Assembly: GCA_937898195.1 (NCBI GenBank)
Contig: CALEJD010000040.1
Location: 24,052-88,051 of the forward strand
Direction: 5' to 3'
DNA: 64,000 nt
Origin: an uncultured Clostridia bacterium
GTDB lineage: Bacteria; Bacillota; Clostridia; Oscillospirales; Acutalibacteraceae
The notes under the pieces were generated by a model. That model saw only the letters and a list, made by a program, of their open reading frames with translations, made no database searches and had not been told where the DNA came from. This document shows positions 48,517 through 64,000 of the stretch, piece by piece (positions within the stretch are counted from its first letter, which is position 1; every line of letters starts with the position of its first letter). A program made the translations under genes and the position numbers.

Positions 48517-48545
48517 ATTATACTACTCTTATGACGAAATGTCAA
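48517..48545 (-). promoter_or_regulatory. consensus promoter directly upstream of the recombinase gene
   Basis: TTGACA-17 nt-TATAAT; the -35 box lies inside the 3' end of the methylase gene. Confidence 0.65.
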
Positions 48546-49497: not shown

Positions 49498-50244
49498 TTA
49501 CTTCTTTTGATTACTTATATTTTCTATCCTTTCTTTTGCGATATTAAAATACCCTTCGTTTAATTCCATCCCAATAAATTTACGATTTGTATTTATACAA
49601 GCAACACCTGTGGAGCCAGAACCCATGCAGTTATCAAGAACTACATCGTTTTCATTTGTAAATGTTTTAATTAGATTTTCCAATAATTTAATTGGCTTCT
49701 GAGTTGGATGCAAGTTGCTTGTCAAGCAATCACGTTGATATTTCCAGACTTGCGTCGGGTATCGCCAACCAGTATCTTTATATTCAAATACCCTCTTTTC
49801 TTGTTGGTCAGTTAGCGTGCCTAATTTGCCATTCTTTACTTTATTACTCCTTGGCTTACCATCATACTTTATCATTTGCGGGTTATATGTTGGTTGCTTA
49901 TTATAAAATATTGATATTGTTTCTATTGTTTTACCAACACGCTTTTTAACTTGATTGACGTTAGTTAATCTTTCTTTTTCCCAATATATATCATATTTAT
50001 ACCACGACAGATTTGAACATCGCAATAAACTGCTAAATGGTTCTTGTCCAAATAATGCAATGACACCATTAGACTTAATAATACGCACATATTCCTTCCA
50101 TAAATCATTAAATGGGATAATTGTGTCCCATTTACATGCAGTTGTACCATAAGGCAAATCACACAATATCATATCTACGCTACCACTTGGAATGTCCTGC
50201 ATTAATTCTATGCAATCGCCTTCATGTATTTCAAAATCACTCAC
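49498..50244 (-). CDS. DNA methyltransferase, N6A/N4C beta class (paralog of 48529..49290)
   Basis: Motifs ILCDLPYGTTACKWD and LDNCMGSGSTG. Confidence 0.8.
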   Translation of the reverse strand: MSDFEIHEGDCIELMQDIPSGSVDMILCDLPYGTTACKWDTIIPFNDLWKEYVRIIKSNGVIALFGQEPFSSLLRCSNLSWYKYDIYWEKERLTNVNQVKKRVGKTIETISIFYNKQPTYNPQMIKYDGKPRSNKVKNGKLGTLTDQQEKRVFEYKDTGWRYPTQVWKYQRDCLTSNLHPTQKPIKLLENLIKTFTNENDVVLDNCMGSGSTGVACINTNRKFIGMELNEGYFNIAKERIENISNQKK

Positions 50245-50265: not shown

Positions 50266-51077
50266 TTAAATACTTTGTAATCTGTTTTTTATAATCTCAC
50301 AATAATCCTCACTCAATTCTATACCAACCCATCTTCTGTTAGTTAGAGTAGCCATTTTTGCAGTCGTTCCACTTCCCATAAATGGGTCTAAAATTATATC
50401 GTTTTCGTTAGACCAAGAAAGTATATGGTCTTTTACTAAACTTTCTGGGAATGGTGCTGGATGCTTTTTAGAAAACTCGTCATGACCTGTAGTTTGGTTA
50501 TATTTCCATATATTGAACCTTCTTCCCATTTTTTTAGTCTCTATCTTACGATACTTTCTACCTTCGTCTGCTGTATATTTATCTCTATTCGTGTTTACGA
50601 CACTATTGCCAACAACTTTATTTTCTCTGTCATATATTAAATTATACGTTGATATTTTTCCTTTAGAAAGTACAAACATATATTCAAAATTTTGAATATA
50701 ACATTTATTACTTCCACATGCACCCACACCATTTTTTTCATATATCATAGTATCGAGTACATTCCAACCAATTTCTTTGAAATATAACGCTTGCTTGAAG
50801 GAAGTTAAAGATTCACAACCGTCTTTTGTTGCATCACCCACAATCCAAACACAAGCCCCCCCGTCTTGGTTACTCTTAACAATTCTTTAGCAACATTTTC
50901 AAAATCAAAAGAATATCCTTCTTTGTATTTTCTTAAATCGTCGTATGGTGGACTTGTAACAGTCAAATCAATACATTCATCATCTATGTCTCTTAATTTC
51001 TTAACACAATCTCCTTGAAGCAAGAATCCAGACTTGTCTTTATAATATGATGTTTTATATAATTCTCTTAAATTCAT
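50266..51077 (-). pseudogene. SPPY-type DNA methyltransferase interrupted by a frameshift at a G7 tract (C7 at 50856..50862 on the plus strand)
   Basis: N-terminal ORF (TSPPYDD...RVTKTGG) and C-terminal ORF (ACVWIVGDATKDG...PFMGSGTT) join into one ~270-aa methylase if the run has 8 G. Confidence 0.75.
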
Positions 51078-51317: not shown

Positions 51318-51629
51318 TTATCTCCTTGCGTTTATACGTTCTATAACATCTTCTGCGGTAAGAAATCCAACAACAGTATCGCCATCTGTTTTCGGGTCAA
51401 CAATGTTGCCATAAATCTCCAGAAGTCCATCTTCATATCCATAAGAACCGTACTGACACATAGCGTCCCATTCACATTCCTTGCCGTCTTTAGGTACACA
51501 AATTTGATGTCTGTCCATAATATATACTGACAAATCTTCATCACATTCCCACCGATGACTAACTTCGTATCTCTCGTATGGTATGTTGTTTTCTTTTAGA
51601 TACACTTCCAGTTTATCGAGTTCGCTCAT
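51318..51629 (-). CDS. hypothetical protein
   Basis: Lies within the operon. Confidence 0.6.
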   Translation of the reverse strand: MSELDKLEVYLKENNIPYERYEVSHRWECDEDLSVYIMDRHQICVPKDGKECEWDAMCQYGSYGYEDGLLEIYGNIVDPKTDGDTVVGFLTAEDVIERINARR

Positions 51630-52291
51630 TATCTATTCTCCTTTAGCCATTTACAATATTCATCCCAATATCCATGCTTGTGTAGCCAGTTATTAGCCTT
51701 TAACATTTCCAACTTCATTTGTGCTTTAGCGTTTGCTCCACAATGAGATTCAATAAATTCATCTTGCGACCTTGCAATCTGCAAACCTTTGAGTTCACCC
51801 CTTGCTTTTTTATATTTGTCCATATCCTTCTCCGGTATGGTATAGGGGGCTTTAGGTAGGTTCCGATTACTAAATGGGGATATGGATGCGCCACTCGTTT
51901 TCAATTTTATAATTGGGGCAAGCGCATCTAAATGCTTGGCATCAAATGTGAAGTACACTTCCCAATCCATAATATCCACATCGTTTACGAATCCAGCGTT
52001 ATGCAATTCATCCACAATTTTATCAACAGATTTACCCCCAACCTTACCAATTACGGACTCGTAATAACTACGCAGGACATTGGTTCCTAATTTCAGTTTT
52101 GGACAGTAGCATGCCAATTCGCTACCAACGCCATGCTTGATTTCAATTCCAGAGCGTCCACTCAAGTAAAAATCTCCAAATGATTCTTCAAGGTTGCCAT
52201 CTTCGTCTCGCACAAAATCATTTGTGCTCTGGTCATAATGCGCCTTAACCCTATACTTCCCTTTATAATGCTGTGCCAGATAGTTATCCAT
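51629..52291 (-). CDS. hypothetical protein
   Basis: ATG 52291 lies 8 nt after AAGGTGA (the track ORF starts at TTG 52330). Confidence 0.6.
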   Translation of the reverse strand: MDNYLAQHYKGKYRVKAHYDQSTNDFVRDEDGNLEESFGDFYLSGRSGIEIKHGVGSELACYCPKLKLGTNVLRSYYESVIGKVGGKSVDKIVDELHNAGFVNDVDIMDWEVYFTFDAKHLDALAPIIKLKTSGASISPFSNRNLPKAPYTIPEKDMDKYKKARGELKGLQIARSQDEFIESHCGANAKAQMKLEMLKANNWLHKHGYWDEYCKWLKENR

Positions 52292-52400
52292 TTTTCTTAT
52301 CACCTTCTTTTGTGGTACTGGAGAACACAATGCGTTTCTCCCCAGCCTTCTTGGGTCTGCCTACAAAGGCATAATTCGATTTCGATTTTGATTTTTCCAT
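52284..52400 (-). CDS. 38-aa basic protein with a GRPKK (AT-hook-like) motif; first ORF of the long leftward operon
   Basis: SD GGAGGT 7 nt upstream; directly downstream of the promoter at 52427..52455. Confidence 0.45.
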   Translation of the reverse strand: MEKSKSKSNYAFVGRPKKAGEKRIVFSSTTKEGDKKNG

Positions 52401-52466: not shown

Positions 52467-52620
52467 GGGGGTGGTTATCCAAATTTCATTTTGAAAACAA
52501 AGTCGCATACTAAAAATCTGATTTCAATTTTCTTTTTTCAACCGGGTGGTTATCCAAATATATATGGCTGAATACGATTTTAATTTAGGATTTTGATTTC
52601 AATTTTCATTTTACCAAAAA
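52467..52620. repeat. repeat block 1: two GGGTGGTTATCCAAAT boxes plus TGATTTCAATTTTC units
   Basis: Boxes at 52467-52484 and 52544-52559; TGATTTCAATTTTC at about 52519 and about 52594; homologous to 61849..61990. Confidence 0.8.
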
Positions 52621-53150: not shown

Positions 53151-53455
53151 AACAAAATGGAGGTAAAAAAATGAAAAACACGCTTTCCTTCTTTTTATTT
53201 TTCAAAATCAATTTATAAAACAAAATTAATTTTGAATTTTGAAAATTGAATAATATTTTTGTGGGAGTTTTTGTTTTGCGCACTTTACCCCTTCGCTCGT
53301 CGCAAGCCTATATATTATGGGGGAAACTGATTGCGCGTACTTTACCCCTTTTCACACACCCTATACGCTTTCACACGCTAATGCGTTAATGCGCGTCGCA
53401 CTTTATCACGTTATCACGCTAATGCTTTAGCGAATGAAAGTGCATAATTATTCAC

Positions 53456-53530
53456 GAAGAACGTGCGTTTGCAAACATTTGTTCTTGCCGAAATCAGTCG
53501 CAAACATTCGTTCGCAAACGCACGTTCTTC
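53456..53530. repeat. perfect 17-bp inverted repeat with a 41-nt spacer
   Basis: GAAGAACGTGCGTTTGC ... GCAAACGCACGTTCTTC. Confidence 0.9.
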
Positions 53531-53752
53531 ACGTTCCCGGATACTTGTCAAAATTTTCCTGTAAATTTTTGACAAATTATTTTTTTGCATCTTGAGTGTT
53601 TGCGACTATAGATTCCAATTATCTGCCATTCCGTTCTTAAACATAACTTATTTGTTCAGATTGAACAAACAAGTTTTCTCCGTTTCTGATTCCAATTATC
53701 AGAACGTGAAATATTAAATTGTATTTTTTACTGTATCCTATTGACTATATAC

Positions 53753-53781
53753 ATTATACCACTTATTGATACTAAAGTCAA
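53753..53781 (-). promoter_or_regulatory. consensus promoter firing leftward into gene-free structured DNA
   Basis: TTGACT-17 nt-TATAAT with TGG. Confidence 0.6.
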
Positions 53782-53826
53782 GAGAAAATTTTATAAAACA
53801 TACAGAAAATATTTTTTTAAAAAATG

Positions 53827-53855
53827 TTGACAATAGATGCAAAGTATGGTATCAT
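53827..53855 (+). promoter_or_regulatory. rightward promoter, divergent from 53753..53781
   Basis: TTGACA-17 nt-TATCAT with TGG; followed by GGGGAAGTGTGAAGTGTAA and A17. Confidence 0.55.
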
Positions 53856-54121
53856 AAAAAGGGGAAGTGTGAAGTGTAAAAAAAAAAAAAAAAACGAATG
53901 GGAAACGATGGTATTTCTTATTCAAGATGCACGATTCTGTACAATATGCCCATCAGACGCTCTATTTTACGTTTTGGCGGGATTTATAATGTAAAGGATG
54001 TTTATATTGACTACCTATATAAAAGTCCATTAGAACGTAAATTAGGGCTTCCATATATTTCCAATTCAACAGAATCGGGACGCATGCTTTAATGCTTTAG
54101 TGTGATAAAGTGAATGTGGAT

Positions 54122-54158
54122 AAAAAAATGATGGTCTGTGTTAACCATCATTTTTTTT
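54122..54158. terminator. bidirectional rho-independent terminator
   Basis: A7-ATGATGGT-ctgtgtta-ACCATCAT-T8. Confidence 0.75.
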
Positions 54159-54163
54159 CTGTT

Positions 54164-54352
54164 TTATCTTTTGAGATTGTATTTTAACACCAAATCTTCG
54201 ATGTCCTCTTCTACCTCCATTCTGTTATCCGCACTTGACCAAAACTCATCATCTACATACGTTTCGTAGTGTTCCATTACTTTTCTAACCTCAATATGAT
54301 AAGCGAGCATTCTGTCATCGTACATTGTCATTCTATCTACTACGTTTTTCAT
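54164..54352 (-). CDS. 62-aa acidic early protein
   Basis: SD AGGAGGT; own promoter and terminator. Confidence 0.7.
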   Translation of the reverse strand: MKNVVDRMTMYDDRMLAYHIEVRKVMEHYETYVDDEFWSSADNRMEVEEDIEDLVLKYNLKR

Positions 54353-54393
54353 CTTATACCTCCTGTATGTTCTGATGTCTTTAACTTGATTAC

Positions 54394-54422
54394 ACTATAC
54401 CATACCATCGGTATGTTGTCAA
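54394..54422 (-). promoter_or_regulatory. early consensus promoter
   Basis: TTGACA-17 nt-TATAGT with TGG. Confidence 0.7.
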
Positions 54423-54737
54423 GTATTTTTTTTATAAATTTTTCTGCAAAATATTTTGCACCATAATTGCCATGTTTACATAGAACATCGTACACAAAAT
54501 ACTTACTACCATTTCTTTCCAATAAATCGGTAAATCGAAAAATAATAGCTTATAGGCATATGCTTCTGTTTTTCCTATCGTTTGAAATAGATTGTATAAG
54601 TACAAAAATTTCATCGAGAACAGGGGAAATCGTCGATTTAAGCGATTTTTTAAAAGAAAAGGTATTTTAGTACGCCAAACCCCCGAAACCCCCAAAACTT
54701 TAGCACGTTAAAACTTTAATGTGATAAAGTTTTGGCA

Positions 54738-54768
54738 ATAAAAAAATCGGATTAATACATCCGATTTT
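54738..54768 (-). terminator. rho-independent terminator (leftward)
   Basis: AAATCGGAT-taataca-ATCCGATTT followed by T7 on the minus strand. Confidence 0.65.
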
Positions 54769-54953
54769 CCATAATAAATATAATTCTATCCGCTAATTCA
54801 TTCATCTGTTTTTCTGTAATATGCTTCCATTTATAGCACCAATCAATTCTATTGCATATCCAATCAATGCTTTTGGTTTTGTAGTTGTATACACAATTTT
54901 ATTACTTTATCACTTTAACGCACTAAAGTTAAGGGGTAAAAATAAAAGAACAT

Positions 54954-55148
54954 TTAATGTTCTTTTATCTCTTCAAACCCAATGAAATTGATTATTGAAT
55001 ATTTCACTACATCATTATTATATCTAATAAAATTGAATGTATCATTTACCTGTTTCAGCGTTTCACCGTCAACGTGTTTAATAATTGGTGAACCAATTAA
55101 CTTACCATTGTTGTCTTTTCTGAAATAACTATAAGTGATTCTAAACAT
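54954..55148 (-). CDS. 64-aa early protein
   Basis: SD GGAGGT. Confidence 0.65.
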   Translation of the reverse strand: MFRITYSYFRKDNNGKLIGSPIIKHVDGETLKQVNDTFNFIRYNNDVVKYSIINFIGFEEIKEH

Positions 55149-55250
55149 AATATACCTCCATAAAGCTCTAATTTTAGTTTTAAACGTGTCTTATATGCTC
55201 ATTGATAGTTTATATTATCTTTATATAAAACACGCTTAAATCGCCATTTT

Positions 55251-55811
55251 TTACCTTGATTCCATATAACTATATCTTGGCGTACTTGTCAAAATCTGAC
55301 AATTACTTTTTTCTGCGTCAAATCTCAAATCGCTTCCGCATTTTCCACATCTATAGTTATGGTAATTTTTGGTAAATTTACTTGCACGTTCTCTGATAAT
55401 AACTTGCCCACATCCTTCACATACAAATACATAATTATGCTTCTTTTCTCTTGTTGGTTTTTCAATTCCAAAATCTGAATATGAATTTGTGCGTGTGATT
55501 GTATACTTTGTGTTGCGTGTTACATAATCCGCCAATCTTTTCCATTCATTTTTATGCGTCATGCAATCCTTACATGTGTGCAATACCTCATGGATAATTG
55601 TACTCATAATCGCAACATCATTAGCATTGTCATCAAAGATAAGATAGTTAAAATTAAGTGAATATGTATTTGTTACGTTATTTCTTCTACATTGTCCGAA
55701 TCTGTTTTTAGCACGATAGTTCAATTTGACTTCAACGATGTTACCATACTCAATATTTAAGTCATCAAGAATTTCAAGTGCACTATGATACATTTCCATA
55801 TAGTTTTTCAT
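55251..55811 (-). CDS. SprT-like zinc metalloprotease with a C-terminal Zn ribbon
   Basis: RFGQC..., HEVLH (HExxH), CEGCG...CGKCG; ATG 55811 after GGAGGT lies downstream of the promoter, so the longer track ORF is unlikely. Confidence 0.65.
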   Translation of the reverse strand: MKNYMEMYHSALEILDDLNIEYGNIVEVKLNYRAKNRFGQCRRNNVTNTYSLNFNYLIFDDNANDVAIMSTIIHEVLHTCKDCMTHKNEWKRLADYVTRNTKYTITRTNSYSDFGIEKPTREKKHNYVFVCEGCGQVIIRERASKFTKNYHNYRCGKCGSDLRFDAEKSNCQILTSTPRYSYMESR

Positions 55812-55852
55812 TTCATACCTCCGATAATGTATGTGCTTTATCTTACGATAAC

Positions 55853-55881
55853 AATATATCATACATCGTTATATTTGTCAA
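55853..55881 (-). promoter_or_regulatory. early consensus promoter
   Basis: TTGACA-17 nt-TATATT. Confidence 0.65.
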
Positions 55882-55924
55882 GTTCTTTTTTAAGTACAAT
55901 TCTTTAGTGCTTTAGTGTGATAAA

Positions 55925-56116
55925 TTACCTTACATCCTCCATTTCCATATGTGGATATTTCTCTTTAAGCATTAACATAATTTCATGGTATGTTGCAAAA
56001 TAATCTTTTTCCTCAAGATAAGAATAACTAAACAGAAATTCATCCATGCTTAACGTCATAAAATCATGCATTTTGTTCATGTCATCCGCAAATGTCCAAT
56101 TACTAATATCCTTCAT
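55925..56116 (-). CDS. 63-aa acidic early protein
   Basis: SD AGGAGGT. Confidence 0.7.
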   Translation of the reverse strand: MKDISNWTFADDMNKMHDFMTLSMDEFLFSYSYLEEKDYFATYHEIMLMLKEKYPHMEMEDVR

Positions 56117-56156
56117 GTTAACCTCCTATAATGTTACACTATCAATTTACAATATC

Positions 56157-56185
56157 ATATTATCATACATTGGTTTATTTGTCAA
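56157..56185 (-). promoter_or_regulatory. early consensus promoter
   Basis: TTGACA-17 nt-TAATAT. Confidence 0.65.
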
Positions 56186-56230
56186 GTAAAATGTGCAAAA
56201 TATTTTTATAAATATTTTTCTAAAAACTAC

Positions 56231-56259
56231 TTGACAAACGTTGAAAAATATGTTAATCT
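56231..56259 (+). promoter_or_regulatory. rightward promoter, divergent from 56157..56185
   Basis: TTGACA-17 nt-TAATCT; followed by GGGGAAGTCTAAGTCTAA and an A run. Confidence 0.5.
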
Positions 56260-56295
56260 AATAGGGGAAGTCTAAGTCTAATAAAAAAAAGATAT

Positions 56296-56324
56296 AAAAA
56301 AAACGGTCTGAATTTTCAGACCGT
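56296..56324 (-). terminator. rho-independent terminator (leftward)
   Basis: ACGGTCTG-aattttc-CAGACCGT followed by T8 on the minus strand. Confidence 0.7.
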
Positions 56325-56332
56325 TCCTATAT

Positions 56333-56527
56333 TTACAACAAATCAGTTTCCATTTCCCTAATATAAAATTCATCCATATCATAAAGTTTTTTAATAAGTT
56401 CTAATTTTTCCCTTGCTCTTTTTTCGCTTGCGTATGCCATAATCATACTACTGGTTATAACATTGTCTTTAGATTTTGTTTGTAATGATATAACACCAAA
56501 TTTATCACATATTGCATATACTACCAT
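56333..56527 (-). CDS. 64-aa early protein
   Basis: SD GGAGGT. Confidence 0.65.
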   Translation of the reverse strand: MVVYAICDKFGVISLQTKSKDNVITSSMIMAYASEKRAREKLELIKKLYDMDEFYIREMETDLL

Positions 56528-56549
56528 AATTTACCTCCAAATATTTATG

Positions 56550-56993
56550 TCAATTTTTTTCTTCAACCATTTCTTTAATGTCATCAATTGTAATGGTTTG
56601 ATTTTTATAATTTTCAAAGAGTGCCTTGCAATCATCTACTGTAGAACAAATATTGTTGCAAATACAAGTGTCGCAATCGTTACAAAAATCTTCAAAGTCA
56701 TTTTCAAGTTCTAAACTTTCAATTGATTCATTCAAAGTTTCTTCCATTTCATCTTCGGGCAAATTTCCATTTTCTGTCAATCCAATATTCTCATAAATAT
56801 AGTCACGTTCAAACCATATAAAATCGTTTACTTCCGTATCAGTCGGAACATTATCACAAAACACCATCTCAAGAAAATCCATAAATTCATTTTCTTTGTT
56901 TGCGTTCTGAATGTCTGCAATAGTATCTATTGCTCCACTCCATACCATATCAGCAAGTTCATAAAACCCATTGATTTCTTTTCTAACTTCCAT
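56550..56993 (-). CDS. 147-aa strongly acidic early protein
   Basis: SD GGAGGT; D/E-rich with a CNDCDTCICNNIC cluster. Confidence 0.7.
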   Translation of the reverse strand: MEVRKEINGFYELADMVWSGAIDTIADIQNANKENEFMDFLEMVFCDNVPTDTEVNDFIWFERDYIYENIGLTENGNLPEDEMEETLNESIESLELENDFEDFCNDCDTCICNNICSTVDDCKALFENYKNQTITIDDIKEMVEEKN

Positions 56994-57031
56994 GTTGTTA
57001 CCTCCAATTATATAACCTTTAACATAGTTAT

Positions 57032-57060
57032 ACTATATCATGCTTTATTGTCATTGTCAA
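57032..57060 (-). promoter_or_regulatory. early consensus promoter
   Basis: TTGACA-17 nt-TATAGT. Confidence 0.7.
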
Positions 57061-57067
57061 GTATTTT

Positions 57068-57295
57068 TTAATAATAATTTTTTGGTGCGTTATCAATTTC
57101 TCTGCGAGTAAATCCCATTTCCAAAAGTTTCTTAATCATGGTTTCTTTTTTAACATACCACCTTAATTCAATATCATGGTATGTAGAATTATATACTTGA
57201 TTTGACGGTCTTGTGTATGAATTCATTTTATATAATTCTAATTCATAACTATTATTCATTGATTTTAATTTATATCCATAATATGTTCTTCTCAT
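57068..57295 (-). CDS. 75-aa early protein
   Basis: ATG 57295 lies 6 nt after GAGGTG. Confidence 0.6.
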   Translation of the reverse strand: MRRTYYGYKLKSMNNSYELELYKMNSYTRPSNQVYNSTYHDIELRWYVKKETMIKKLLEMGFTRREIDNAPKNYY

Positions 57296-57308
57296 TTTAT
57301 GCACCTCA

Positions 57309-57578
57309 TTATTCCATCATTTCATTAATGTAAATCGTTTCTCTGTCATCATGTTTAAGCCATGATACCCATTCACATTCTACTTTTATATTACGTCTGT
57401 TAAGCACTTCTTTCCACATGTCGTTAATGAACATATAAAAATCATTTAATGCTTCTGCTTTTGCGTTATCTTTATTATTAGAGATTACGATTTCACTATA
57501 CAATTTTTCGTTTCTAATTCCACTAAATATTGTATTTGTTCTTCCGTAAATTGTTACATAATATTTCTTCATGCTCAT
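57309..57578 (-). CDS. 89-aa early protein
   Basis: SD GGAGGT. Confidence 0.65.
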   Translation of the reverse strand: MSMKKYYVTIYGRTNTIFSGIRNEKLYSEIVISNNKDNAKAEALNDFYMFINDMWKEVLNRRNIKVECEWVSWLKHDDRETIYINEMME

Positions 57579-57592
57579 TGTCTATACCTCCA

Positions 57593-57841
57593 TCAATCCC
57601 ATCCTAACATTTCATATATTTCATCCATGTTAAATGGTTTACTATTTACATCGTGCTTCGGTGTATCTAATATCTTGTCAATTCTCGCTTGTTCTGTTTT
57701 GTGTTGCCATAACAATGGTTCGTTACCTTTTACCATATTTTCTGTGACTGTATATCTTTTTCCCCTATATTCATATTCAAGATATACGGTTTCCCTGTCG
57801 TATCCTGTGCCATACCATTTATCAATAAATTTTGCCTTCAT
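57593..57841 (-). CDS. 82-aa early protein
   Basis: SD GGGAGGT. Confidence 0.65.
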   Translation of the reverse strand: MKAKFIDKWYGTGYDRETVYLEYEYRGKRYTVTENMVKGNEPLLWQHKTEQARIDKILDTPKHDVNSKPFNMDEIYEMLGWD

Positions 57842-57869
57842 TCTTTCAACCTCCCTTATTTACAATACC

Positions 57870-57898
57870 ACTATACCATATTTCAATCCCATTGTCAA
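57870..57898 (-). promoter_or_regulatory. early consensus promoter
   Basis: TTGACA-17 nt-TATAGT with TGG. Confidence 0.7.
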
Positions 57899-58290
57899 CA
57901 ACTTTTTTTCAACAAAATAAAATAAAAAAAACTACCATTTTTTCAATGTTTTTTACCACTATTTTATAAAATTACGTTCGGCAAATCGCAAATTAGAGCC
58001 TCGCAAAAATCAAAAGAATGTTGGAATTTCAACGATTATAGCCATTCTTTAGCACTTTAGTGTAATTTTGCCATATAGTTATACCTTGAATTTATGTATT
58101 TTTATGCAAATTTCATACATAAATCGTTATAAATGTTGAAATTGCAAGGGTTTCGACGTTTTTACCTATCGTACAACAAGCCTAAAATAAGCCTAAAATC
58201 GTCGATTTAAGCGTTTTTCCCAAAATATGGTATGAATACTCATGTATATTATACATAAGGGTTGGCACGATACTTGCATAGCCAAATTTG

Positions 58291-58546
58291 CTTTAATGCT
58301 TTAGAATACAAAAGTAAAATTTTACTTTTGTACTTTATAATTTGAATACTTTAATTTGCTAAAGTGTAACATTATAATCCACTTTTATGTTGTAAAGCAT
58401 TAAAGCATTATCGCTTTAATATGGTAAAGTTATAAAATATTAACGTCTTAATACATTAAAATATCATTGCTTTAATATGGTAAAGTCTTGTGTATTGAAT
58501 ATTGTATACACATTTTTAGCACATTAATACTTTAATGCGTTAAAGT
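58291..58546. repeat. gene-free cluster of ACTTTA-N6-TAAAGT palindromes, a 22-bp perfect palindrome and a TGTATACA palindrome
   Basis: Sites at 58348, 58413, 58469 and 58529; CAAAAGTAAAATTTTACTTTTG at 58309-58330; TGTATACA at 58503-58510. Confidence 0.85.
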
Positions 58547-58556
58547 TTTTGAACAT

Positions 58557-58594
58557 GAAAAAAGGTTACCAATATTTTACACGGTAACCTTTTC
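58557..58594 (-). terminator. rho-independent terminator (leftward)
   Basis: AAAGGTTACC-12 nt-GGTAACCTTT followed by a T run on the minus strand. Confidence 0.7.
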
Positions 58595-58629
58595 CAATTT
58601 ATTTATAGGAGGTTTTAGAGAATTTCTGA

Positions 58630-59193
58630 TTAATAATCATATTGTACTATTCTACCATCCCAAAGTTCATAATAGTAACCATCTTCAATAATCGCTTCGC
58701 CAAGTCCTTCATAATCAATATAATTTGTTAACCAAGATTCAATATTACAACATTCATCAACATAATTTTCTGCAACGTCATACGCATCATTCCATACATA
58801 CGATATAATACTCATATCAAAATAATCATTGTTGTAATTGTTAAGCACTTCTTCAACATCTTCTTCGTTAAGTGCGTATTCATCATGCATCTTTTCAATT
58901 TCAGATTCACGCACATATGATTCAAATTCTTCATGTTCACCATTTGCAATCATATCAGCAACATCGCTAAACGTATCATCGCCATCAGTATTTTTCATAC
59001 GATTAAACACATCTTTCGTAACCCATGTTTCAACATCATCAAAATCTTCATCAATACGCACACTACAACGTGCATTTGATACAATAGGTTTACCACTATA
59101 ATCTAAATGAATTATGCCATCACTATTAAGTTCAATATATCTGCATCCATCGCATTCATCTTTAATTCTATAAAGGATAATGTACTTACTCAT
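58630..59193 (-). CDS. ardA: ArdA-like anti-restriction protein (acidic DNA-mimic family)
   Basis: C-terminus YDVAENYVDE...LTNYIDYEGLGEAIIEDGYYYELWDGRIVQY parallels Tn916 Orf18 ArdA YDVARYYIEE...LQNYIDYQAYGRDLDLSGTF...GIFEI (recalled from memory); very acidic. Confidence 0.55.
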   Translation of the reverse strand: MSKYIILYRIKDECDGCRYIELNSDGIIHLDYSGKPIVSNARCSVRIDEDFDDVETWVTKDVFNRMKNTDGDDTFSDVADMIANGEHEEFESYVRESEIEKMHDEYALNEEDVEEVLNNYNNDYFDMSIISYVWNDAYDVAENYVDECCNIESWLTNYIDYEGLGEAIIEDGYYYELWDGRIVQYDY

Positions 59194-59207
59194 ATTTATA
59201 CCTCCAA

Positions 59208-59750
59208 TTACGCACGTTCTTCAACTTCGTTAAGCAAATCTTCAACTTCAGTTTCGCAAAACTCGCCAATACTTGTATCGTTATCCCAATCCCAAACATT
59301 ATAGCACTCTGCCATAATATCTATATCACAACAATATTTACCATCGGCAATGGTTTTATATTGCATACGAGATTCAAGTTCAAACCATTCTGTTTCATCG
59401 TCAAATCTTACTAAAAATCTATCCGTATAATTTGCTCTTACATCACCATATCTATGTACCATAATCGCCATATATGTATATCCATTTATTCCCAATTCTG
59501 CTACATCAATATCGTGGTCTATATTAGCATTCCAATTATAAGTATTCCATCTATGGGCTGCATGTTCTACAATCCAATCAATTGACTTTCCTGTAGTTTC
59601 AATTTCATAATCCTTTAATTCATAAAGCAATTCAAGAACATTGCCACAAATTACATCATCTTTAATTTCACCGTTCGGCTCATATATCCAAGCCTTACAT
59701 TCTTTATTGACTTCCTTAATATCCTTAATTACTGCGTCCAATCTTGTCAT
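59208..59750 (-). CDS. 180-aa acidic early protein
   Basis: ATG 59750 lies 8 nt after GGAGGT (the track starts at TTG 59765). Confidence 0.65.
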   Translation of the reverse strand: MTRLDAVIKDIKEVNKECKAWIYEPNGEIKDDVICGNVLELLYELKDYEIETTGKSIDWIVEHAAHRWNTYNWNANIDHDIDVAELGINGYTYMAIMVHRYGDVRANYTDRFLVRFDDETEWFELESRMQYKTIADGKYCCDIDIMAECYNVWDWDNDTSIGEFCETEVEDLLNEVEERA

Positions 59751-59793
59751 ATTCATAACCTCCAATTATGTTATAACTTTATCTTACAATAAT

Positions 59794-59822
59794 ACTATAA
59801 CATATCTTTAATCATTTATCAA
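59794..59822 (-). promoter_or_regulatory. early promoter
   Basis: TTGATA-17 nt-TATAGT. Confidence 0.6.
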
Positions 59823-59961
59823 GTGTTTTTTTTAACAAATAATCAATATCCGACAATTTACTATTCATCGCCAATTGCAAATCAATACCATTGATTCCAA
59901 TTTTTTCCAATTCCCTTTTTATCTCGTTTTGTTTTGTTATTGGTAGTTCTGCAATATACAT
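59812..59961 (-). CDS. 49-aa early protein
   Basis: Weak SD AGGAAA; starts right after the upstream stop. Confidence 0.4.
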   Translation of the reverse strand: MYIAELPITKQNEIKRELEKIGINGIDLQLAMNSKLSDIDYLLKKTLDK

Positions 59962-59962
59962 T

Positions 59963-60109
59963 TTATTTATTTCCTAACTTTATTCTTATAATTTTATGCT
60001 CCAAAATCTTTAGTTCATCTTTTTGATGGTTATATTCCATTTCAATTCTTTTGCCTTGCTTTAATTTCTGTGTAATTACCTCTAATGCTTCCTTATTAAT
60101 ATATTCCAT
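59963..60109 (-). CDS. 48-aa early protein
   Basis: SD GGGAGGT 5 nt upstream. Confidence 0.55.
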   Translation of the reverse strand: MEYINKEALEVITQKLKQGKRIEMEYNHQKDELKILEHKIIRIKLGNK

Positions 60110-60126
60110 TTATTACCTCCCAAATT

Positions 60127-60549
60127 TTACCATTCTTCATCTTCTTCATCTTCCAAAAGTGCCCAATGAATACTTCCATCACAATCCGCATCCATATAGT
60201 CCTCAATAGATTCATCCCATAAATTGTTCATGTCAAATGTTCTATAAAGGAAATTTGCAAGCTCCAATGGGTTTTTATAATAGTGTCTTTCAAGTTCCTT
60301 TGTCGGGCGCATACCACCATCAGCATAAACATAAATTGTAATGAGATTATCATTATCCACCATTAGTTTAATATATCCCATTTCATTTTCATGGAACACC
60401 ATAAACTCACAAACACGCTCGTTACAATTCCAGTCAAAATCTGTACCATCATTACCATTCATATAGTAAATTTTTCCATCAAGTTCATTTCCGATAATTG
60501 GATATTCTTCCCTAACTTCATTAATAATGTTCAAAATCTGTTTAAGCAT
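60127..60549 (-). CDS. 140-aa acidic early protein (ends EDEEDEEW)
   Basis: SD AGGAGGT. Confidence 0.7.
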   Translation of the reverse strand: MLKQILNIINEVREEYPIIGNELDGKIYYMNGNDGTDFDWNCNERVCEFMVFHENEMGYIKLMVDNDNLITIYVYADGGMRPTKELERHYYKNPLELANFLYRTFDMNNLWDESIEDYMDADCDGSIHWALLEDEEDEEW

Positions 60550-60587
60550 ATGTTACCTCCTATTACATAACTTCTTTTAACACATAT

Positions 60588-60616
60588 ACTATATCATACA
60601 TTGGTTATATTGTCAA
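60588..60616 (-). promoter_or_regulatory. early consensus promoter
   Basis: TTGACA-17 nt-TATAGT. Confidence 0.7.
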
Positions 60617-60625
60617 GTATTTTTT

Positions 60626-60922
60626 TTAGATTTTGTTAAAATCTTCATCATACCAATTTCCATCTTTATCCAATGTATATTCCGATACCTTCCAAAATTC
60701 CCTTACGCAATATTCAAGTTCTTCAATACTCTTCAAATCATCAAAATGTTCATAAGCACAAATCGTATATACATATGTTGTTAGGCAATTCAATTTTGCT
60801 TCTGCATTAAGTTCGTCATATGTGAGAAATGTTTCTTCTCCCATATCATTCAATTCATCTTCAATTAATGTAATTACATTACTTGACAAACACATGTGCT
60901 CTATTACATCGCCTAAATTCAT
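60626..60922 (-). CDS. 98-aa acidic early protein
   Basis: ATG 60922 lies 6 nt after GGAGGA. Confidence 0.65.
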   Translation of the reverse strand: MNLGDVIEHMCLSSNVITLIEDELNDMGEETFLTYDELNAEAKLNCLTTYVYTICAYEHFDDLKSIEELEYCVREFWKVSEYTLDKDGNWYDEDFNKI

Positions 60923-60924
60923 CC

Positions 60925-61122
60925 TTATTCCTCCATCCAATCATACCATGAGCGCACTTCATCTTCATGCAATCCCATATCAACATAAATTCCTATAAGT
61001 TCTTCACGTTCCTTAATATTTCTATAATTGTAATAATTATCCAAATGTTCACCAATCCAATTGCACATATTAGTTAACAAGTTTTCAATTTCTGCATTTG
61101 TATAGTCATTATGCCAAGTCAT
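60925..61122 (-). CDS. 65-aa acidic early protein
   Basis: SD AGGAGGT. Confidence 0.65.
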   Translation of the reverse strand: MTWHNDYTNAEIENLLTNMCNWIGEHLDNYYNYRNIKEREELIGIYVDMGLHEDEVRSWYDWMEE

Positions 61123-61125
61123 AAT

Positions 61126-61341
61126 TTACCTCCTATCAATCGTACCAAGCCAACTATTGAATTCATCCCAATCAACTTCACACACATCATAGTCCTCAAA
61201 GAATTCAAGAACATTCTCAAACATATTCTTACAAGCGATAAATTCATCATCAGAAAGTTTTGTACCTTCATAAAGTGCTTCAATACAATCGTTTACATCC
61301 ATGTTTGTATTGTGAAATCTGCAATAATTCATATTTGCCAT
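61126..61341 (-). CDS. 71-aa acidic early protein
   Basis: SD AAGGAGGT. Confidence 0.65.
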   Translation of the reverse strand: MANMNYCRFHNTNMDVNDCIEALYEGTKLSDDEFIACKNMFENVLEFFEDYDVCEVDWDEFNSWLGTIDRR

Positions 61342-61352
61342 ATCGTACCTCC

Positions 61353-61445
61353 TTAATAAATACCATCAATATAATGATTTCCAAGCCCTGTAATAATAGT
61401 CACCAATGCGAAAGCGATAATCGCCTTTATTGTTTCTCTATCCAT
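61353..61445 (-). CDS. 30-aa hydrophobic micro-protein
   Basis: SD AGGAGGT 6 nt upstream; first ORF after the promoter at 61492..61520. Confidence 0.4.
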   Translation of the reverse strand: MDRETIKAIIAFALVTIITGLGNHYIDGIY

Positions 61446-61491
61446 ATTCAACCTCCTACCATATCAATTATTATTTTTCAATTTCAACGTA

Positions 61492-61520
61492 ATTATATCA
61501 TATCTGTTTTTATTTGTCAA
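61492..61520 (-). promoter_or_regulatory. early consensus promoter
   Basis: TTGACA-17 nt-TATAAT. Confidence 0.7.
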
Positions 61521-61827
61521 GAAAAATCTCAATATTTTTCATTCCAAAATATTCCAATGTTAGTACAAATGCGACAAGATTTTTCACGTTATGATTATTG
61601 ATTTTTCTTTTTTCATTCGCATAATCTTCAAATGCAAATCGAAAAGCATAAAGGTCATAAGCCATACCACGCATCACAATATCCTCTAACCTATCATCCC
61701 AATGCTCATTTTCCATTGTGTGATACTTAATAAAATCCTCTGCATAATCCTTTTCCTCAATATAATGGTCATAAAATCTCCCCATAAATTCAAATCCATC
61801 CATTGTAATTTCTGTTTTGATTTTCAT
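61510..61827 (-). CDS. 105-aa early protein
   Basis: SD GGAGGT. Confidence 0.65.
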   Translation of the reverse strand: MKIKTEITMDGFEFMGRFYDHYIEEKDYAEDFIKYHTMENEHWDDRLEDIVMRGMAYDLYAFRFAFEDYANEKRKINNHNVKNLVAFVLTLEYFGMKNIEIFLDK

Positions 61828-61848
61828 TTCATACCTCCGATTACATAA

Positions 61849-61990
61849 GGGGTGGTTATCCGATTATCAAAATCAATAAGGGGTGGTTATCCAATTATTG
61901 ATTTCAATTTTCGTTTTTTGATTCTGAAATTGATTTCATTTTTCATTTTTTGATTTTGAAATTGATTTCATTTTTCAATTTTTCATTTTG
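61849..61990. repeat. repeat block 2: two ATAAGGGGTGGTTATCC boxes plus three TGATTTCAWTTTTC units
   Basis: Boxes at 61849-61864 and 61880-61895; same orientation as block 1. Confidence 0.8.
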
Positions 61991-62056
61991 CTATCGTGCG
62001 CACCTTGTACCAATATTTTACACGTTGAATTAAAATCAATTTTCATTTGCAAACGT

Positions 62057-62085
62057 ATAATATCATATCTCGTTTTATTTGTCAA
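62057..62085 (-). promoter_or_regulatory. early consensus promoter with a ~230-nt leader containing repeat block 2
   Basis: TTGACA-17 nt-TATTAT. Confidence 0.65.
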
Positions 62086-62931
62086 TACCTTTTTTTATTT
62101 TGTTTTATTTTTTTTATCATGCGCATGTTATATATAATGTATGCTTTTGATTATAAGTATATTGTTGTTGTTATTTTTACATACAATATTTTTCATATCA
62201 CCTTATAACGCTTTAATTTGCGTTTTAAGCGATTTTTTATATTGAATGATAAATTACCTTACATTGATACAAAATGCTCTTAAAACTTAAAATAAGCACA
62301 TTAAACACTCGTTTTTAGGGATAATCATATAACATCATGTATTATTTTTCTACCATATTATTATATGTGATTTTGATATAAAAAAAATAATCAATTTGTT
62401 ATCAAAATATTACTAATTTGTTTATGAAAAAATAAACAAACATGCTTTAAGAATAAAGAAAAAGATTTTAATGATTTAATACTTTAATTAATTAAAGTAA
62501 AAAAAATGAAACAATACGCTTTAAGAATAAGAAAATAAAATCAATTTTACTTTTTTTCAATTTAACACTTTAATCAATTAAAGTGTTATCAAAAAAAAAC
62601 ATTATCAAAATCAAAATTCAAAATTAAAAGAATTTTTAAGAATAAAAAAATCAAAAAAATTTTCATTTTTTTTTCAAAAATCTCTGTGGCATATATATAT
62701 GGGGAAATATAAAAAACGCACTTTACCCTCCGCAAGCGAGTCCCCCTCTGCTTTTTCACATTAAAGTAATGAATCGAATCAAATTTTAACGCTTTAACGC
62801 TTTATCGCTTTAATTGAATAAAGTGCATATTCATTCATTCCAAATTTTTCCATTTTTGGCAATTTTTCCATTTCTATTTTCTTCCATAAACAAGCGTTTG
62901 CGCTCGCCTGTTCTGTCAGATTTTGGAAGTG

Positions 62932-62965
62932 AACAATTGTTTTTATCCATATAAAAACAATTGTT
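62932..62965. repeat. perfect 15-bp-stem hairpin / cruciform
   Basis: AACAATTGTTTTTAT-ccat-ATAAAAACAATTGTT. Confidence 0.9.
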
Positions 62966-62968
62966 TGT

Positions 62969-62977
62969 TGTGGATAA
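62969..62977. promoter_or_regulatory. perfect DnaA-box 9-mer
   Basis: TGTGGATAA (reverse complement TTATCCACA), 3 nt from the 15-bp hairpin. Confidence 0.4.
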
Positions 62978-64000
62978 CCCACGTTATCATTCTACCACAA
63001 ATTAGTATTAAATACAATGCAAAAATTTTTGCATTTCATACGCTAATACTTTAATGTATGAAAGTTATTTTTATAGTATCGTGCAATTGTATATTGTATA
63101 CACAATTTTAATACTTTAATGCAATAAAGTGCCTCTGTCAGAAACCTTTACAATTTAATACTTTAATTTAATAAAGTATGTATATTGTATACATCTTTTA
63201 ATACTTTATAACTTTAATTGATTAAAGTATTAAAGTATACAATTTTGCATACTGTATACAATATTTTATTGCTTTAATTGAATAAAGTGTTAATGTGTTA
63301 AAATATATATTTGCATATTGTATACAATAGTTTAATGATTTATCATTTTAATATTTTAACTTGCTAAAGTATTTTATACGTTATAACTTTATTGAATTAA
63401 AGTATTAAATTGTTAATATGGTAATATTTTAATGTGTTAAAGTTTTGTATACAAAACACACAAAAATACATTGATTTTTTTATGGTCTGAAATTTATTTT
63501 TTGTATCGGGAAATCGAAAAATAAAGCCTCAAAAAATCTTAAAAAATCGCTTAATTGCAAGGGTTTGAGGCGATTTTTTAACGCTTTAGCGTATTTTTGT
63601 CATGTAGTTATACCTTGAAATTATAAAAATTTTTTTGTTTTTGCACACAAAAACGCTCGAAAGCCTTGTACCGCAAGGGTTTGCCGACTTTTGATTTTGA
63701 AAAATTAGCGCAAAATGACGCCTTATTTTTTGATTTCCCGGTTTTTTGTGTGTTGTGGTCTGATTTTATTGTGTGAAAACACAATAATGATTGGTATAAC
63801 TTTTGCATAGGATAATTTTTGCTTTAGCATATTAAAACTTTAATGCGTTAAAGTAAGAATCACGTACACTTTAGCACGTTAAAATTTTAATGTATTAAAA
63901 TTTCTTGACCAAAAAAATAGTAAAAAATGGTAAAATTTTGGCATAAATTTTGCTACATTATATATAAAAAAGGCACTAAAAAATAATTTCAAAACATGCA

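Follow-up and report, generated by a model that had tools for sequence, protein, structure and literature searches.

A composite cluster of palindromes and convergent octamer arrays in a phage genome from an uncultured Clostridia bacterium: candidate operators of early transcription

We find that, within the window (the whole 64,000-nucleotide stretch of DNA analysed here), a cluster at 63.0-63.5 kb is built from eight octamer arrays (63049-63442) which alternate with five TGTATACA palindromes, and that arrays of the same grammar recur in other gaps between early genes of this phage and in many other phages. The arrays are most likely docking sites, beside early-gene promoters, for putative regulators; and our reading of the cluster and the arrays together, as composite operators at which oligomerising regulators would act on early transcription, is one to which we give an even chance. 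The basic element is an 8-bp CTTTAAnn unit, arranged head-to-head as (->)n(<-)m, with the 8-bp register strictly kept.

The original prediction was of five TGTATACA-centred palindromes, each followed 10-40 nt later by an “ACTTTA dyad”. All five palindromes were found where it had placed them, and their centres, re-measured at 91, 67, 66 and 127 bp apart, agree with the spacings given there. The order of palindrome then dyad holds for four of the five, but at the fifth (63446) the dyad precedes in mirror image (TAAAG-ttt-TGTATACA). The dyad itself is indeed enriched, but is actually the centre of a convergent array of 2-5 CTTTAAnn octamers in 8-bp register; and the gap from palindrome to first octamer, far from being loose, measures 3 bp exactly, or that plus multiples of 8. 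The cluster and its surroundings are made up as follows:

63049-63456: composite cluster of 8 octamer arrays and 5 TGTATACA palindromes, syntenic with 10640-11060 of relative L020 and 2920-2640 of relative L106
63049-63064: octamer array of 2 units, CTTTAATG TATGAAAG
63095-63102: TGTATACA palindrome 1, 3 bp ahead of the array at 63106-63129
63106-63129: octamer array of 3 units, TTTTAATA CTTTAATG CAATAAAG, missing from L020
63153-63176: octamer array of 3 units
63178-63194: ATGTATAttgTATACAT, containing TGTATACA palindrome 2 (63186-63193), 2 bp ahead of the array at 63196-63235
63196-63235: octamer array of 5 units, near-identical in L020
63253-63260: TGTATACA palindrome 3, 3 bp ahead of the array at 63264-63303
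63264-63303: octamer array of 5 units
63317-63328: palindrome 4, ATTGTATACAAT, 3 bp ahead of the array at 63330-63369
63330-63369: octamer array of 5 units, degenerate
63379-63410: octamer array of 4 units, identical in L020
63427-63442: octamer array of 2 units
63443-63456: palindrome 5, TTTTGTATACAAAA, in mirror-image placement 3 bp past the array at 63427-63442, and followed by CACAAAAATACAT, which is kept in L020 and L106
62466-62497: 4-unit array whose core is a perfect 16-bp palindrome, in the same noncoding region as the cluster
62560-62583 and 62784-62823 (5 units): further arrays in the same noncoding region
63822-63853 and 63869-63900: two 4-unit arrays right of the cluster

In 62200-64000 we counted TGTATACA five times, where first-order Markov simulations of the region gave an expectation of 0.054 and never more than two copies in 5000 runs; the dyad CTTTAA-N5-TAAAG, allowing at most one mismatch, was found 12 times against 0.14 expected. 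Tandem repeat finder (TRF) rows have a period of 8. The same register emerges from other loci (the relatives L020 and L106 being left out of these statistics), where CTTTA to CTTTA spacings peak at 8 (259 cases) and then at 16, 24 and 32; CTTTA to TAAAG spacings peak at 11 (665), 19 (272) and 27; TAAAG to TAAAG spacings peak at 8 (195); and the divergent arrangement, TAAAG to CTTTA, has no sharp peak. This register and orientation pattern is also seen in 52-64 kb of the window and is absent from its 1-52 kb. The distance from TGTATACA to CTTTA is 11, 19 or 27 in the window, in L020 and in the unrelated locus L078, and the TGTATACA centre lies about one helical turn away from the first TTTA of the adjoining array. 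Both close relatives, L020 and L106, keep the alternation of palindrome and array, with varying unit number; and the octamer grammar also turns up in some 100 unrelated viral contigs, besides cultured Staphylococcus phages, a range which runs from rumen clostridial phages to Staphylococcus phages with unrelated flanks. Searching the GenBank phage collection at nucleotide level with the region gave no match in near or distant mode. Thus the earlier preference for a cooperative nucleoprotein assembly site over simple low complexity is supported by the 8-bp register, by the fixed palindrome-array spacing, by the alternation kept in the relatives and by the recurrence of the grammar elsewhere.

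The cluster is not alone in the window. We located 25 octamer arrays, all at 53.4-63.9 kb and in at least eight gaps between early genes, with 46 dyad strand matches window-wide (2.3 expected), every one of them inside 53425-63884. A sixth copy of the palindrome and array pair, previously placed at 58490-58546, is present (58503/58514-58545), but is not the sole extra copy, as another lies at 54886/54897-54928; about 15 more arrays in the window are without a palindrome. Several other repeat families occupy the same gaps. Dispersed features, with the nearest promoter, are:

58291-58545: dispersed copy, with arrays at 58291-58314, 58349-58364, 58382-58445 and 58470-58485, then TGTATACA at 58503-58510, 3 bp, and an array at 58514-58545
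58558-58593: bidirectional terminator hairpin GGTTACC...GGTAACC, read from the sequence, separated from the array end by 18 bp and closing the leftward gene 58630-59193 at its 3′ end
54886-54928: dispersed copy, with TGTATACA at 54886-54893, 3 bp, and a 4-unit array at 54897-54928, adjoining the terminator hairpin at 54945-54965
54698-54729: 4-unit array adjoining the terminator hairpin at 54746-54765
54087-54123: 3-unit array (54087-54110), 4 bp, and a perfect DnaA box (54115-54123), then a terminator (54122-54159)
53425-53527: 2-unit array (53425-53440), then four one-mismatch LexA-like boxes (53459, 53473, 53502 and 53516)
62057-62085, minus strand: strong promoter of sigma-A type closest to the cluster (TTGACA-17-TATTAT with TG), from which the leftward early genes are transcribed

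The arrays are confined to the early, hyperplastic part of the genome, where they lie between a terminator and the next promoter. In locus L074 the order within a gap is terminator, arrays, about 50-70 nt, TTGACA-17-TGnTATAAT, a Shine-Dalgarno site and ATG, and in both L074 and L003 arrays stand upstream of almost every early gene. Around 812 strong promoter-like sites, dyad centres concentrate at -50 to -175 and are nearly missing from -25 to +100. This placement between terminator and sigma-A promoter, repeated in many gaps, argues for operators rather than for a single origin, centromere or packaging site. However, the cluster itself lies 950-1375 bp upstream of the nearest strong promoter, which far exceeds the -50 to -175 typical of other phages, and the promoter association could in part reflect co-location in short intergenic gaps. 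An arrangement of tandem sigma-A promoters, one per 66-nt unit, was rejected because we saw by eye no consistent -35/-10 spacing and a promoter scan gave only weak matches inside the cluster. We also dismissed a likeness to the late -10 motif of Kayvirus, TGTTATATTA, and one to the MotA box of T4 (TGCTTTA), since the elements occur in both orientations and in a multi-copy register.

If the arrays and palindromes are composite operators, a DNA-binding protein that oligomerises would touch each octamer with a single subunit or a single dimer, while a dimeric regulator would occupy the palindrome: a phage protein at TGTATACA here, and host LexA in other lineages. The array binder and the palindrome binder might then cooperate or compete to silence or time many strong early promoters, giving either early shut-off or lysogenic/SOS control. 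The five-fold cluster could be a high-avidity nucleation or switch site, the hub of a divergent control region of about 3 kb.

That noncoding region, of about 3 kb between the leftward and the rightward early operons, is also where a replication origin would have to be considered, in which a phage initiator would use the arrays and palindromes as iteron-like sites and, with the adjacent host DnaA boxes and A+T-rich DNA, open the duplex between the divergent operons, and the dispersed arrays would serve autoregulation or handcuffing. Left of the cluster lie:

62931: LexA-like box GAACAATTGTTT, with one mismatch
62943-62951: DnaA-like near-match box TTATCCATA
62969-62977: perfect DnaA box TGTGGATAA, about 75 bp left of the cluster, kept in L020 (10636) and with near-matches in L106

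Perfect DnaA boxes exceed expectation both in the window (4 against about 0.5, by our estimate for uniform sequence, with two adjoining arrays) and across loci (28 against 7.3). The cluster region has a G+C content of 23.5%, and the cumulative GC skew is lowest where the strand switches, at about 63 kb; in locus L084, a noncoding region of 2.5 kb has a 700-bp array alongside a second family of iterons. An origin thus keeps some probability for this cluster on account of its conserved DnaA boxes, high A+T and neighbouring strand switch, and the DnaA boxes, base composition and switch of strand and GC skew fit an origin and an operator equally well. Yet the elements are not unique to this site, recurring as they do in the gaps described above and before nearly every early gene of L074 and L003. 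The units are of 8 bp and convergent, in contrast to the 17-22-bp direct iterons in helical phase of iteron-type origins; no initiator gene adjoins the cluster, the replication genes lying some 20 kb off; the DnaA boxes at the cluster number just one or two; and the skew minimum is weak evidence, since phage GC skew tracks gene orientation. We consider an origin improbable, and the centromere, packaging site and genome terminus, which had been named beside it, less likely again; all of these fit less well than operators do for elements which recur in at least eight gaps.

The boxes for host factors bear on a further possibility. Across loci we found 89 GAAC-N4-GTTC boxes against 10.9 expected, and 59 of 71 strict ones lie 200 bp or less from a dyad, positions which make up 17.5% of bases. 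Spacing from these boxes to CTTTA peaks at 13 and 21; perfect LexA boxes adjoin arrays in other phages, and 14 LexA boxes in nine loci do so in register, the box often standing there in place of TGTATACA. A CtsR-like box lies beside an array in Staphylococcus phage OPT-SC01. The Firmicutes LexA/Cheo box, CGAAC-N4-GTTCG, was not found in 63049-63456, and within the window one-mismatch boxes occur at 62931 and 53459-53527. An earlier suggestion that the site titrates a host factor is therefore borne out in so far as host LexA, DnaA and CtsR-like boxes do adjoin arrays, but in a different sense from the one proposed. We suggest, tentatively and with clearly less confidence than for operators in general, that the CTTTAAnn array is a widely shared “adapter” operator of Firmicutes phages, along which an oligomerising protein would coat the 8-bp units and, by contact in a fixed register, help or hinder a dimeric regulator on the abutting palindrome, be it a phage TGTATACA binder or a host protein (LexA, or possibly DnaA or CtsR). 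Were this true, phages would have whole sets of strong early promoters wired to the host's stress and cell-cycle sensors, and the five-fold cluster of the window would be a master switch. The temperate Bacillus phage GIL01 is controlled by host LexA with a small phage cofactor, and is alike in tying phage early promoters to host LexA boxes with a phage-specific element alongside. GIL01 differs in having one or two dinBoxes and a cofactor that is not known to bind DNA, whereas octamer arrays flank the boxes here; the window cluster, moreover, bears TGTATACA and not LexA boxes.

A close parallel in layout is offered by SPBRE, the element to which MrpR (YopR), master repressor of Bacillus phage SPbeta, binds (PMC10516654). 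In both cases a short element is repeated in many early intergenic gaps beside sigma-A promoters, and the phages are large siphophages whose genes resemble the SPbeta set, as in the DnaE-type polymerase of this phage and the YonF-type terminases of other loci with arrays. However, each SPBRE is one site of some 15-20 bp (AAATACAAAAAATATGTATA, as it reads in SPbeta) that lies close beside the core promoter or flanks it, where the arrays here are runs of 8-bp units at -50 to -175; the SPBRE copies in SPbeta differ from both the octamer and TGTATACA. Dyads in SPbeta are at chance level only, and arrays were absent from two noncoding gaps of SPbeta and from the first 24 kb of Phass-1. Nor did we find in the window a catalytically dead, tyrosine-recombinase-like repressor such as MrpR: the only protein of tyrosine-recombinase fold there, the product of 47637-48467, is XerD-like (E=1e-26 to 1a0p), aligns with E. 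coli XerD through the RH and GH...Y catalytic motifs, and was rejected as an MrpR-like repressor since BLASTP against MrpR gave no alignment and its catalytic motifs are conserved.

As to what might bind, the array grammar matches that of ribbon-helix-helix (RHH) proteins: omega, with its heptad operator/centromere arrays (inc18 plasmid pSM19035); MetJ, with 8-bp metboxes; and ParG, with ACTC-N4 arrays (TP228). Shared features are contiguous 7-8 bp units in register, variable copy number (2-10), a position upstream of promoters, the use of direct and convergent orientations with the divergent disfavoured (a criterion from work on omega), and possible dual use as operator and centromere. The unit sequence is different here, the setting is a phage whose genome carries arrays by the dozen, and these are joined to a second palindromic operator; neither the window nor the array neighbours yielded an RHH gene. 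Pfam and PHROG scans of the window proteins and of 65 small basic ORFs beside arrays gave no shared RHH/HTH family, and phmmer with omega, Arc, CopG, MetJ, ParG and YonN (RHH/HU queries) gave no match; the search covered 64 kb of the phage genome plus, at each locus, flanks of at most about 7 kb, and RHH domains are themselves short. All-against-all ORF clustering of 104 loci gave as the commonest neighbours of arrays a late sigma-like protein (phrog_5767), a zinc-ribbon protein, TerL, a HAD-like protein (by its DMDGT motif, without Pfam match) and a 235-aa family without Pfam match; these families reflect genome layout and were ruled out as binders. A 38-aa peptide with a GRPKK motif (52284-52400) had no tblastn match in L020 or any other locus. 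Within the cluster region itself there is no ORF above 66 aa, no tRNA and no Rfam match, and an RNA gene was dropped as an explanation on the strength of the last two results. The apparent conserved 66-aa ORF (63608-63808, minus strand) is without a Shine-Dalgarno site and is not intact in L106.

A regulator of this type could also serve partition, with one protein repressing dispersed promoters and using the cluster as the centromere of a plasmid-like prophage, in the manner of omega of pSM19035, ParG/parH or KorB/OB. KorB of plasmid RK2 binds OB operators, TTTAGCSGCTAAA. There the likeness lies in a palindromic core with TTTAG...CTAAA ends, in sites at variable distances from many promoters, and in one protein being both global regulator and centromere binder; but spacing here is 1 bp longer (TTTA-N6-TAAA against TTTA-N5-TAAA), the core is multimerised in 8-bp register, and no ParB-family gene was found. 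In keeping with a centromere are the resemblance of the grammar to type Ib partition centromere/operator arrays, the presence of a single large cluster plus many promoter-proximal arrays, distant DnaE relatives which include phiCD211-like phages and a record named Clostridioides phage pCD1602_4, and the XerD-like recombinase, active on our reading, which could resolve multimers. Nevertheless, no ParA, ParB or ParG-like gene was found among the window ORFs scanned or beside arrays, and arrays are shared by Herelleviridae Staphylococcus phages, which are probably strictly lytic and so would need no centromere. We regard partition as very unlikely.

About as doubtful is a genome terminus, with the cluster as terminal-repeat boundary, packaging site or injection-stop signal. 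Circumstantially, the contig of L020 stops about 250 bp beyond the cluster, and the GenBank record of Staphylococcus phage vB_SurM-PSU4 begins within an array; Baoshanvirus-type phages have arrays in the early region encoding terminal-repeat (Tre) proteins, or near the record end, amid repeat-rich noncoding DNA; and the late sigma-like, zinc-ribbon and TerL genes are no more than a few kb from arrays in 32 of the 104 loci. But metagenome contig ends commonly land in repeats, arrays are scattered over many sites per genome, and the L106 sequence continues through the cluster region into rightward genes. Searching the GenBank phage collection at nucleotide level with the region gave no match in near or distant mode.

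In large SPbeta-like and Herelleviridae phages, early promoters of near-consensus, host type number in the dozens, and SPbeta is the main case in which their silencing or timing is understood; literature searched by motif strings held no account of the grammar reported here. Being conserved and easy to search for, this DNA grammar marks early promoters in phages of the gut, the rumen and Staphylococcus, has a physical link to host LexA boxes, and so gives a concrete handle for finding the regulator: bait DNA (63040-63460, with a mutant control of CTTTA to CAGTA and TGTATACA to TGCATGCA), reporter designs and a genome-scanning pattern. It could serve to predict where the early regions of uncultured phages lie, and perhaps the lifestyle of such phages; and a binder, if new, would offer synthetic biology a compact cooperative DNA-binding module.

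Considering how such arrays spread, they could instead be selfish or recombinogenic intergenic cassettes without a dedicated binder (compare T4-type promoter/stem-loop cassettes and MITE/BOX-like repeats), moving by recombination and shuffling early genes. Their confinement to the hyperplastic early region, always with terminator and promoter, would suit this, as would the differing unit number among close relatives and the other repeat families in the same gaps. We think it highly improbable, however: across phages with unrelated flanks only the 5-bp cores, the 8-bp register and the orientation rule are conserved, a pattern that marks selection for protein recognition and not common descent of a mobile sequence, and the spacing of arrays to LexA boxes and to TGTATACA is fixed.

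The five TGTATACA-centred palindromes at 63087-63456, and the CTTTAA-N5-TAAAG dyads which the original prediction described as alternating with them, were all found to lie at the positions it had given; 5 copies of TGTATACA and 12 dyads are present in 62200-64000, versus 0.054 and 0.14 expected from first-order Markov simulations of that region. Across the whole window the dyad (allowing up to one mismatch) gives 46 strand hits versus 2.3 expected, and all 46 fall within 53425-63884. The dyad proved to be the middle of a longer element, with many period-8 rows reported by Tandem Repeats Finder. In spacing histograms over the other loci with arrays (excluding L020 and L106, the window's two close relatives), the CTTTA to CTTTA distance has its top peak at 8 (259 cases), followed by 16, 24 and 32; CTTTA to TAAAG peaks at 11 (665), 19 (272) and 27; and TAAAG to TAAAG peaks at 8 (195), while divergent TAAAG to CTTTA distances in these loci gave no sharp peak. 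The pattern is repeated in 52-64 kb of the window and is absent from 1-52 kb. Because of the period-8 rows and the sharp distance peaks, we conclude that the element is a convergent array, (->)n(<-)m, of 8-bp CTTTAAnn units in strict register.

There are 25 arrays in the window, each of 2-5 units apart from one with 8, and eight of them lie in 63049-63442, interleaved with the palindromes. Measured from the start of TGTATACA, the next CTTTA is 11, 19 or 27 away, corresponding to a 3-bp gap and then whole units; the window and L020 share this rule with locus L078, which is otherwise unrelated to them. The last palindrome (63446) has a mirror-image placement, after an array. In the window's lineage, TGTATACA would be the operator of a dimeric regulator to which the arrays are joined. 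The window itself comes from the genome of a large tailed phage whose host is Gram-positive (Firmicutes-type), and is laid out as follows.

Gene blocks, promoters and candidate regulatory sites of the window
Up to ~15.6 kb, rightward: tape-measure and tail genes
16-52 kb, leftward: replication and nucleotide-metabolism module
53-62.2 kb, leftward: numerous small, mainly acidic genes with GGAGG-type ribosome-binding sites
62085, 61520, 60616, 59822 and 57898: near-consensus extended -10 sigma-A promoters
52455: sixth such promoter, found by eye, upstream of gene 51629-52330
58503/58514-58545 and 54886/54897-54928: dispersed palindrome-plus-array modules
4 bp from array 54087-54110: perfect DnaA box
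~75 bp left of the cluster at 63049-63456: another perfect DnaA box, conserved in L020
62931: LexA-like box with one mismatch
53456-53530 (boxes at 53459-53527): four LexA/Cheo-like boxes, GAACGTGCGTTT, AAACATTTGTTC, AAACATTCGTTC and AAACGCACGTTC, with one mismatch each

Each dispersed module has its array 5-25 bp away from a bidirectional terminator, which belongs to the leftward gene before it. Beyond 62.2 kb the rest of the window drops to 23.5% G+C, and a search there for ORFs longer than 66 aa, tRNAs and Rfam matches found none. L020 (a viral contig of 47 kb from rumen, with early proteins at 67-90% identity to those of the window) and L106 (a contig from a goat-colon metagenome-assembled genome) are both syntenic with the window around the cluster, and both retain the palindrome/array alternation, a DnaA box or near-box at its flank, and TTGTATACAA...CACAAAAATACAT at its close. 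They differ in unit number, L020 being without one of the window's units and L106 having fewer. The L020 contig ends ~250 bp beyond the cluster; L106 continues through ~1.6 kb of further noncoding DNA to rightward genes with strong ribosome-binding sites, and the cluster is therefore located in a ~3-kb divergent control region. DnaA boxes, high A+T and a strand-switch/GC-skew minimum coincide at the cluster, and the nearest strong promoter is ~1 kb away; the 63.0-63.5 kb region may thus, with lower probability than an operator role, act as an origin of replication. Less likely still is that it serves as a centromere or terminus, or in recombination alone.

Other repeats were seen in the window. 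A conserved module of ~200 nt has two copies in the window (57970-58170 and 63500-63705) and is also present in L020 (~6760-6900, 11090-11313) and L106 (~2600-2390); it comprises, in order, aaatcg...aaagcctc, CTTTAGCxCTTTAGxG, TTTTGyCATrTAGTTATACCTTGAA and gcaagggttt...ctttt. It may encode a small RNA, as a weak rightward promoter-like site (63597-63624) is followed by a terminator-like hairpin. A repeated block, CGCACTTTACCCC adjoining tatatatggggaaa, occurs at 53277-53345 and 62690-62745, and again in L020 (~10300-10345) and L106 (~3270-3225), and a 32-bp unit, ATTGATTTCATTTTTCATTTTTTGATTTTGAA, is repeated in tandem ~2.9 times (91% match) at 61897-61990, between promoter 62085 and the first leftward gene. 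The control region has two additional palindromes: ATTGTGTGAAAACACAAT at 63768-63785, whose L106 counterpart at the matching place is TTGTGTAAATACACAA, and ATGCAAAAATTTTTGCAT at 63017-63034, partly retained in L020.

Scanning IMG/VR for two dyads within 20-50 bp gave 104 loci on very diverse contigs of 5-310 kb, mainly from rumen and gut samples, with at least 8 dyads in 63 of the 104 and 30-43 in some; almost none have proteins in common with the window. Many come from large phages of Firmicutes whose terminase is a relative of those of Geobacillus E3, Enterococcus EF1/H1, Brevibacillus Sundance ‘YonF’ and Bacillus phages. In locus L074 each gap contains, in order, a terminator, an array, a GC-rich palindrome, an array, ~50-70 nt, a promoter (TTGACA-17-TGnTATAAT), a ribosome-binding site and ATG. 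Relative to 812 strong promoter-like sites, dyad centres are concentrated at -50 to -175 with almost none at -25 to +100, a distribution which must partly be a product of short intergenic gaps; this shows that the arrays lie upstream of core promoters and never on them.

Short GC-rich palindromes (e.g. gggccgcggccc) typically lie between two arrays in L003, L074, L102 and L067, where array centres are 30-33 bp apart, and may either bind another protein or serve as a structural spacer. In L084 and L007, arrays of ~700 bp occupy multi-kb noncoding regions. Directly following the 700-bp array of L084, at 2795-3035, a second family of repeats is represented by five copies, TATTAACAG(C/G)G...AAA(A/T)ATTGCT; the noncoding region here measures 2.5 kb, and a LexA-like cgaacaatcgttcg is close by. 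Arrays are also present in cultured Staphylococcus phages: in OPT-SC01, within the region encoding terminal-repeat (Tre) proteins; in phiSA_BS1/BS2, with that of phiSA_BS2 close to a record end in noncoding DNA rich in repeats; and in vB_SurM-PSU4. Two of these, phiSA_BS2 and vB_SurM-PSU4, are assigned to Baoshanvirus (Herelleviridae). SPbeta, judged by its chance-level dyads and by two noncoding gaps, and the first 24 kb of Phage Phass-1 (L110, OQ749652.1) were without arrays. Phass-1 is a terminase relative of the array-bearing phages and is placed in the ‘code 15 clade’, which has stop-codon recoding; the same may hold for some IMG/VR loci whose ORFs are fragmented, with consequences for ORF-based analyses there.

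Predicted binding sites of host regulators lie near arrays. GAAC-N4-GTTC (LexA/Cheo) boxes are eight-fold enriched across the loci (89 versus 10.9 expected), and 59 of 71 strict boxes lie within 200 bp of a dyad, positions that make up 17.5% of bases. Distances from box to CTTTA have peaks at 13 and 21, corresponding to a 1-bp gap and then whole units, with 14 boxes in nine loci abutting arrays in register. Before the array of OPT-SC01 (L109, PQ046924.1; 2930-3085) stands tttgactttgactaactttgacc, which on the opposite strand reads as a CtsR-type direct repeat of GGTCAAA, and phiSA_BS2 has a degenerate version in the same place (L112 2530-2555). Because of the in-register LexA boxes and the adjoining DnaA- and CtsR-like boxes, the arrays would thus behave as modules fused to putative operators of dimeric regulators. 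The four boxes at 53456-53530 form a 28-nt inverted repeat within the second large noncoding stretch (52.4-54.16 kb), which suggests possible SOS-linked control, and the L106 control region holds a perfect AGAACACTTGTTCT. GGGTGGTTATCC(A/G)A(A/T)T occurs four times, and every copy contains a DnaA-box-like TTATCCAAA/TTATCCGAT: two (52469-52484, 52544-52559) lie immediately upstream of promoter 52455, and two (61849-61864, 61881-61896) are downstream of promoter 62085, within the 5' leader of gene 61510-61827.

The strict register, orientation rule and fixed spacings, the conservation of only 5-bp cores across unrelated phages, and the placement of arrays between terminator and promoter together point to predicted sequence-specific, cooperative protein binding that would regulate early transcription. 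Ribbon-helix-helix proteins (omega, MetJ, ParG) bind 7-8-bp units in direct and convergent, not divergent, arrangement and variable copy number, a grammar which the arrays appear to match; a search for a ribbon-helix-helix or other candidate binder in the window and beside the arrays found none. The SPBRE/MrpR regulon of the related phage SPbeta (PMC10516654) is the functional analogue, although it is unlike the arrays in both sequence and architecture. The literature searched for the motif strings and related descriptions gave no match, and the only promoters described in a Kayvirus transcriptome paper are early ones of sigma-70 type and TGTTATATTA late ones. The arrays would fall within a known kind, either cooperative operator arrays or an early regulon that extends phage-wide.

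The 16-52 kb module encodes ribonucleotide reductase, an ExoV/Dda-like helicase, a DnaE-type polymerase, RecJ, a DnaB-like helicase, RtcB, a XerD-like recombinase and several methyltransferases; its DnaE places phiCD211-like Clostridioides phages and large Bacillus siphophages nearest among cultured phages (~37-43% amino-acid identity). The large subunit of ribonucleotide reductase (998 aa; 17996-20992, minus strand) has PHROG matches to HNH endonucleases at residues ~367-456, and these suggest a possible inserted homing endonuclease or intein. The XerD-like tyrosine recombinase (47637-48467, minus strand), within the same module, matches E. coli XerD at E=1e-26 in an alignment that runs through the catalytic motifs, and could act in integration or in the resolution of multimers. 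It is the sole tyrosine-recombinase-fold protein found in the window, and a MrpR-like repressor was ruled out for it, its catalytic region being XerD-type and without likeness to MrpR. At least four DNA methyltransferase genes or fragments (29620-30603, 48529-49290, 49498-50244 and 50266-51077) comprise one C5 and two or three N6/N4 types, the last being seemingly split into overlapping ORFs (50266-50841 and 50805-51077).
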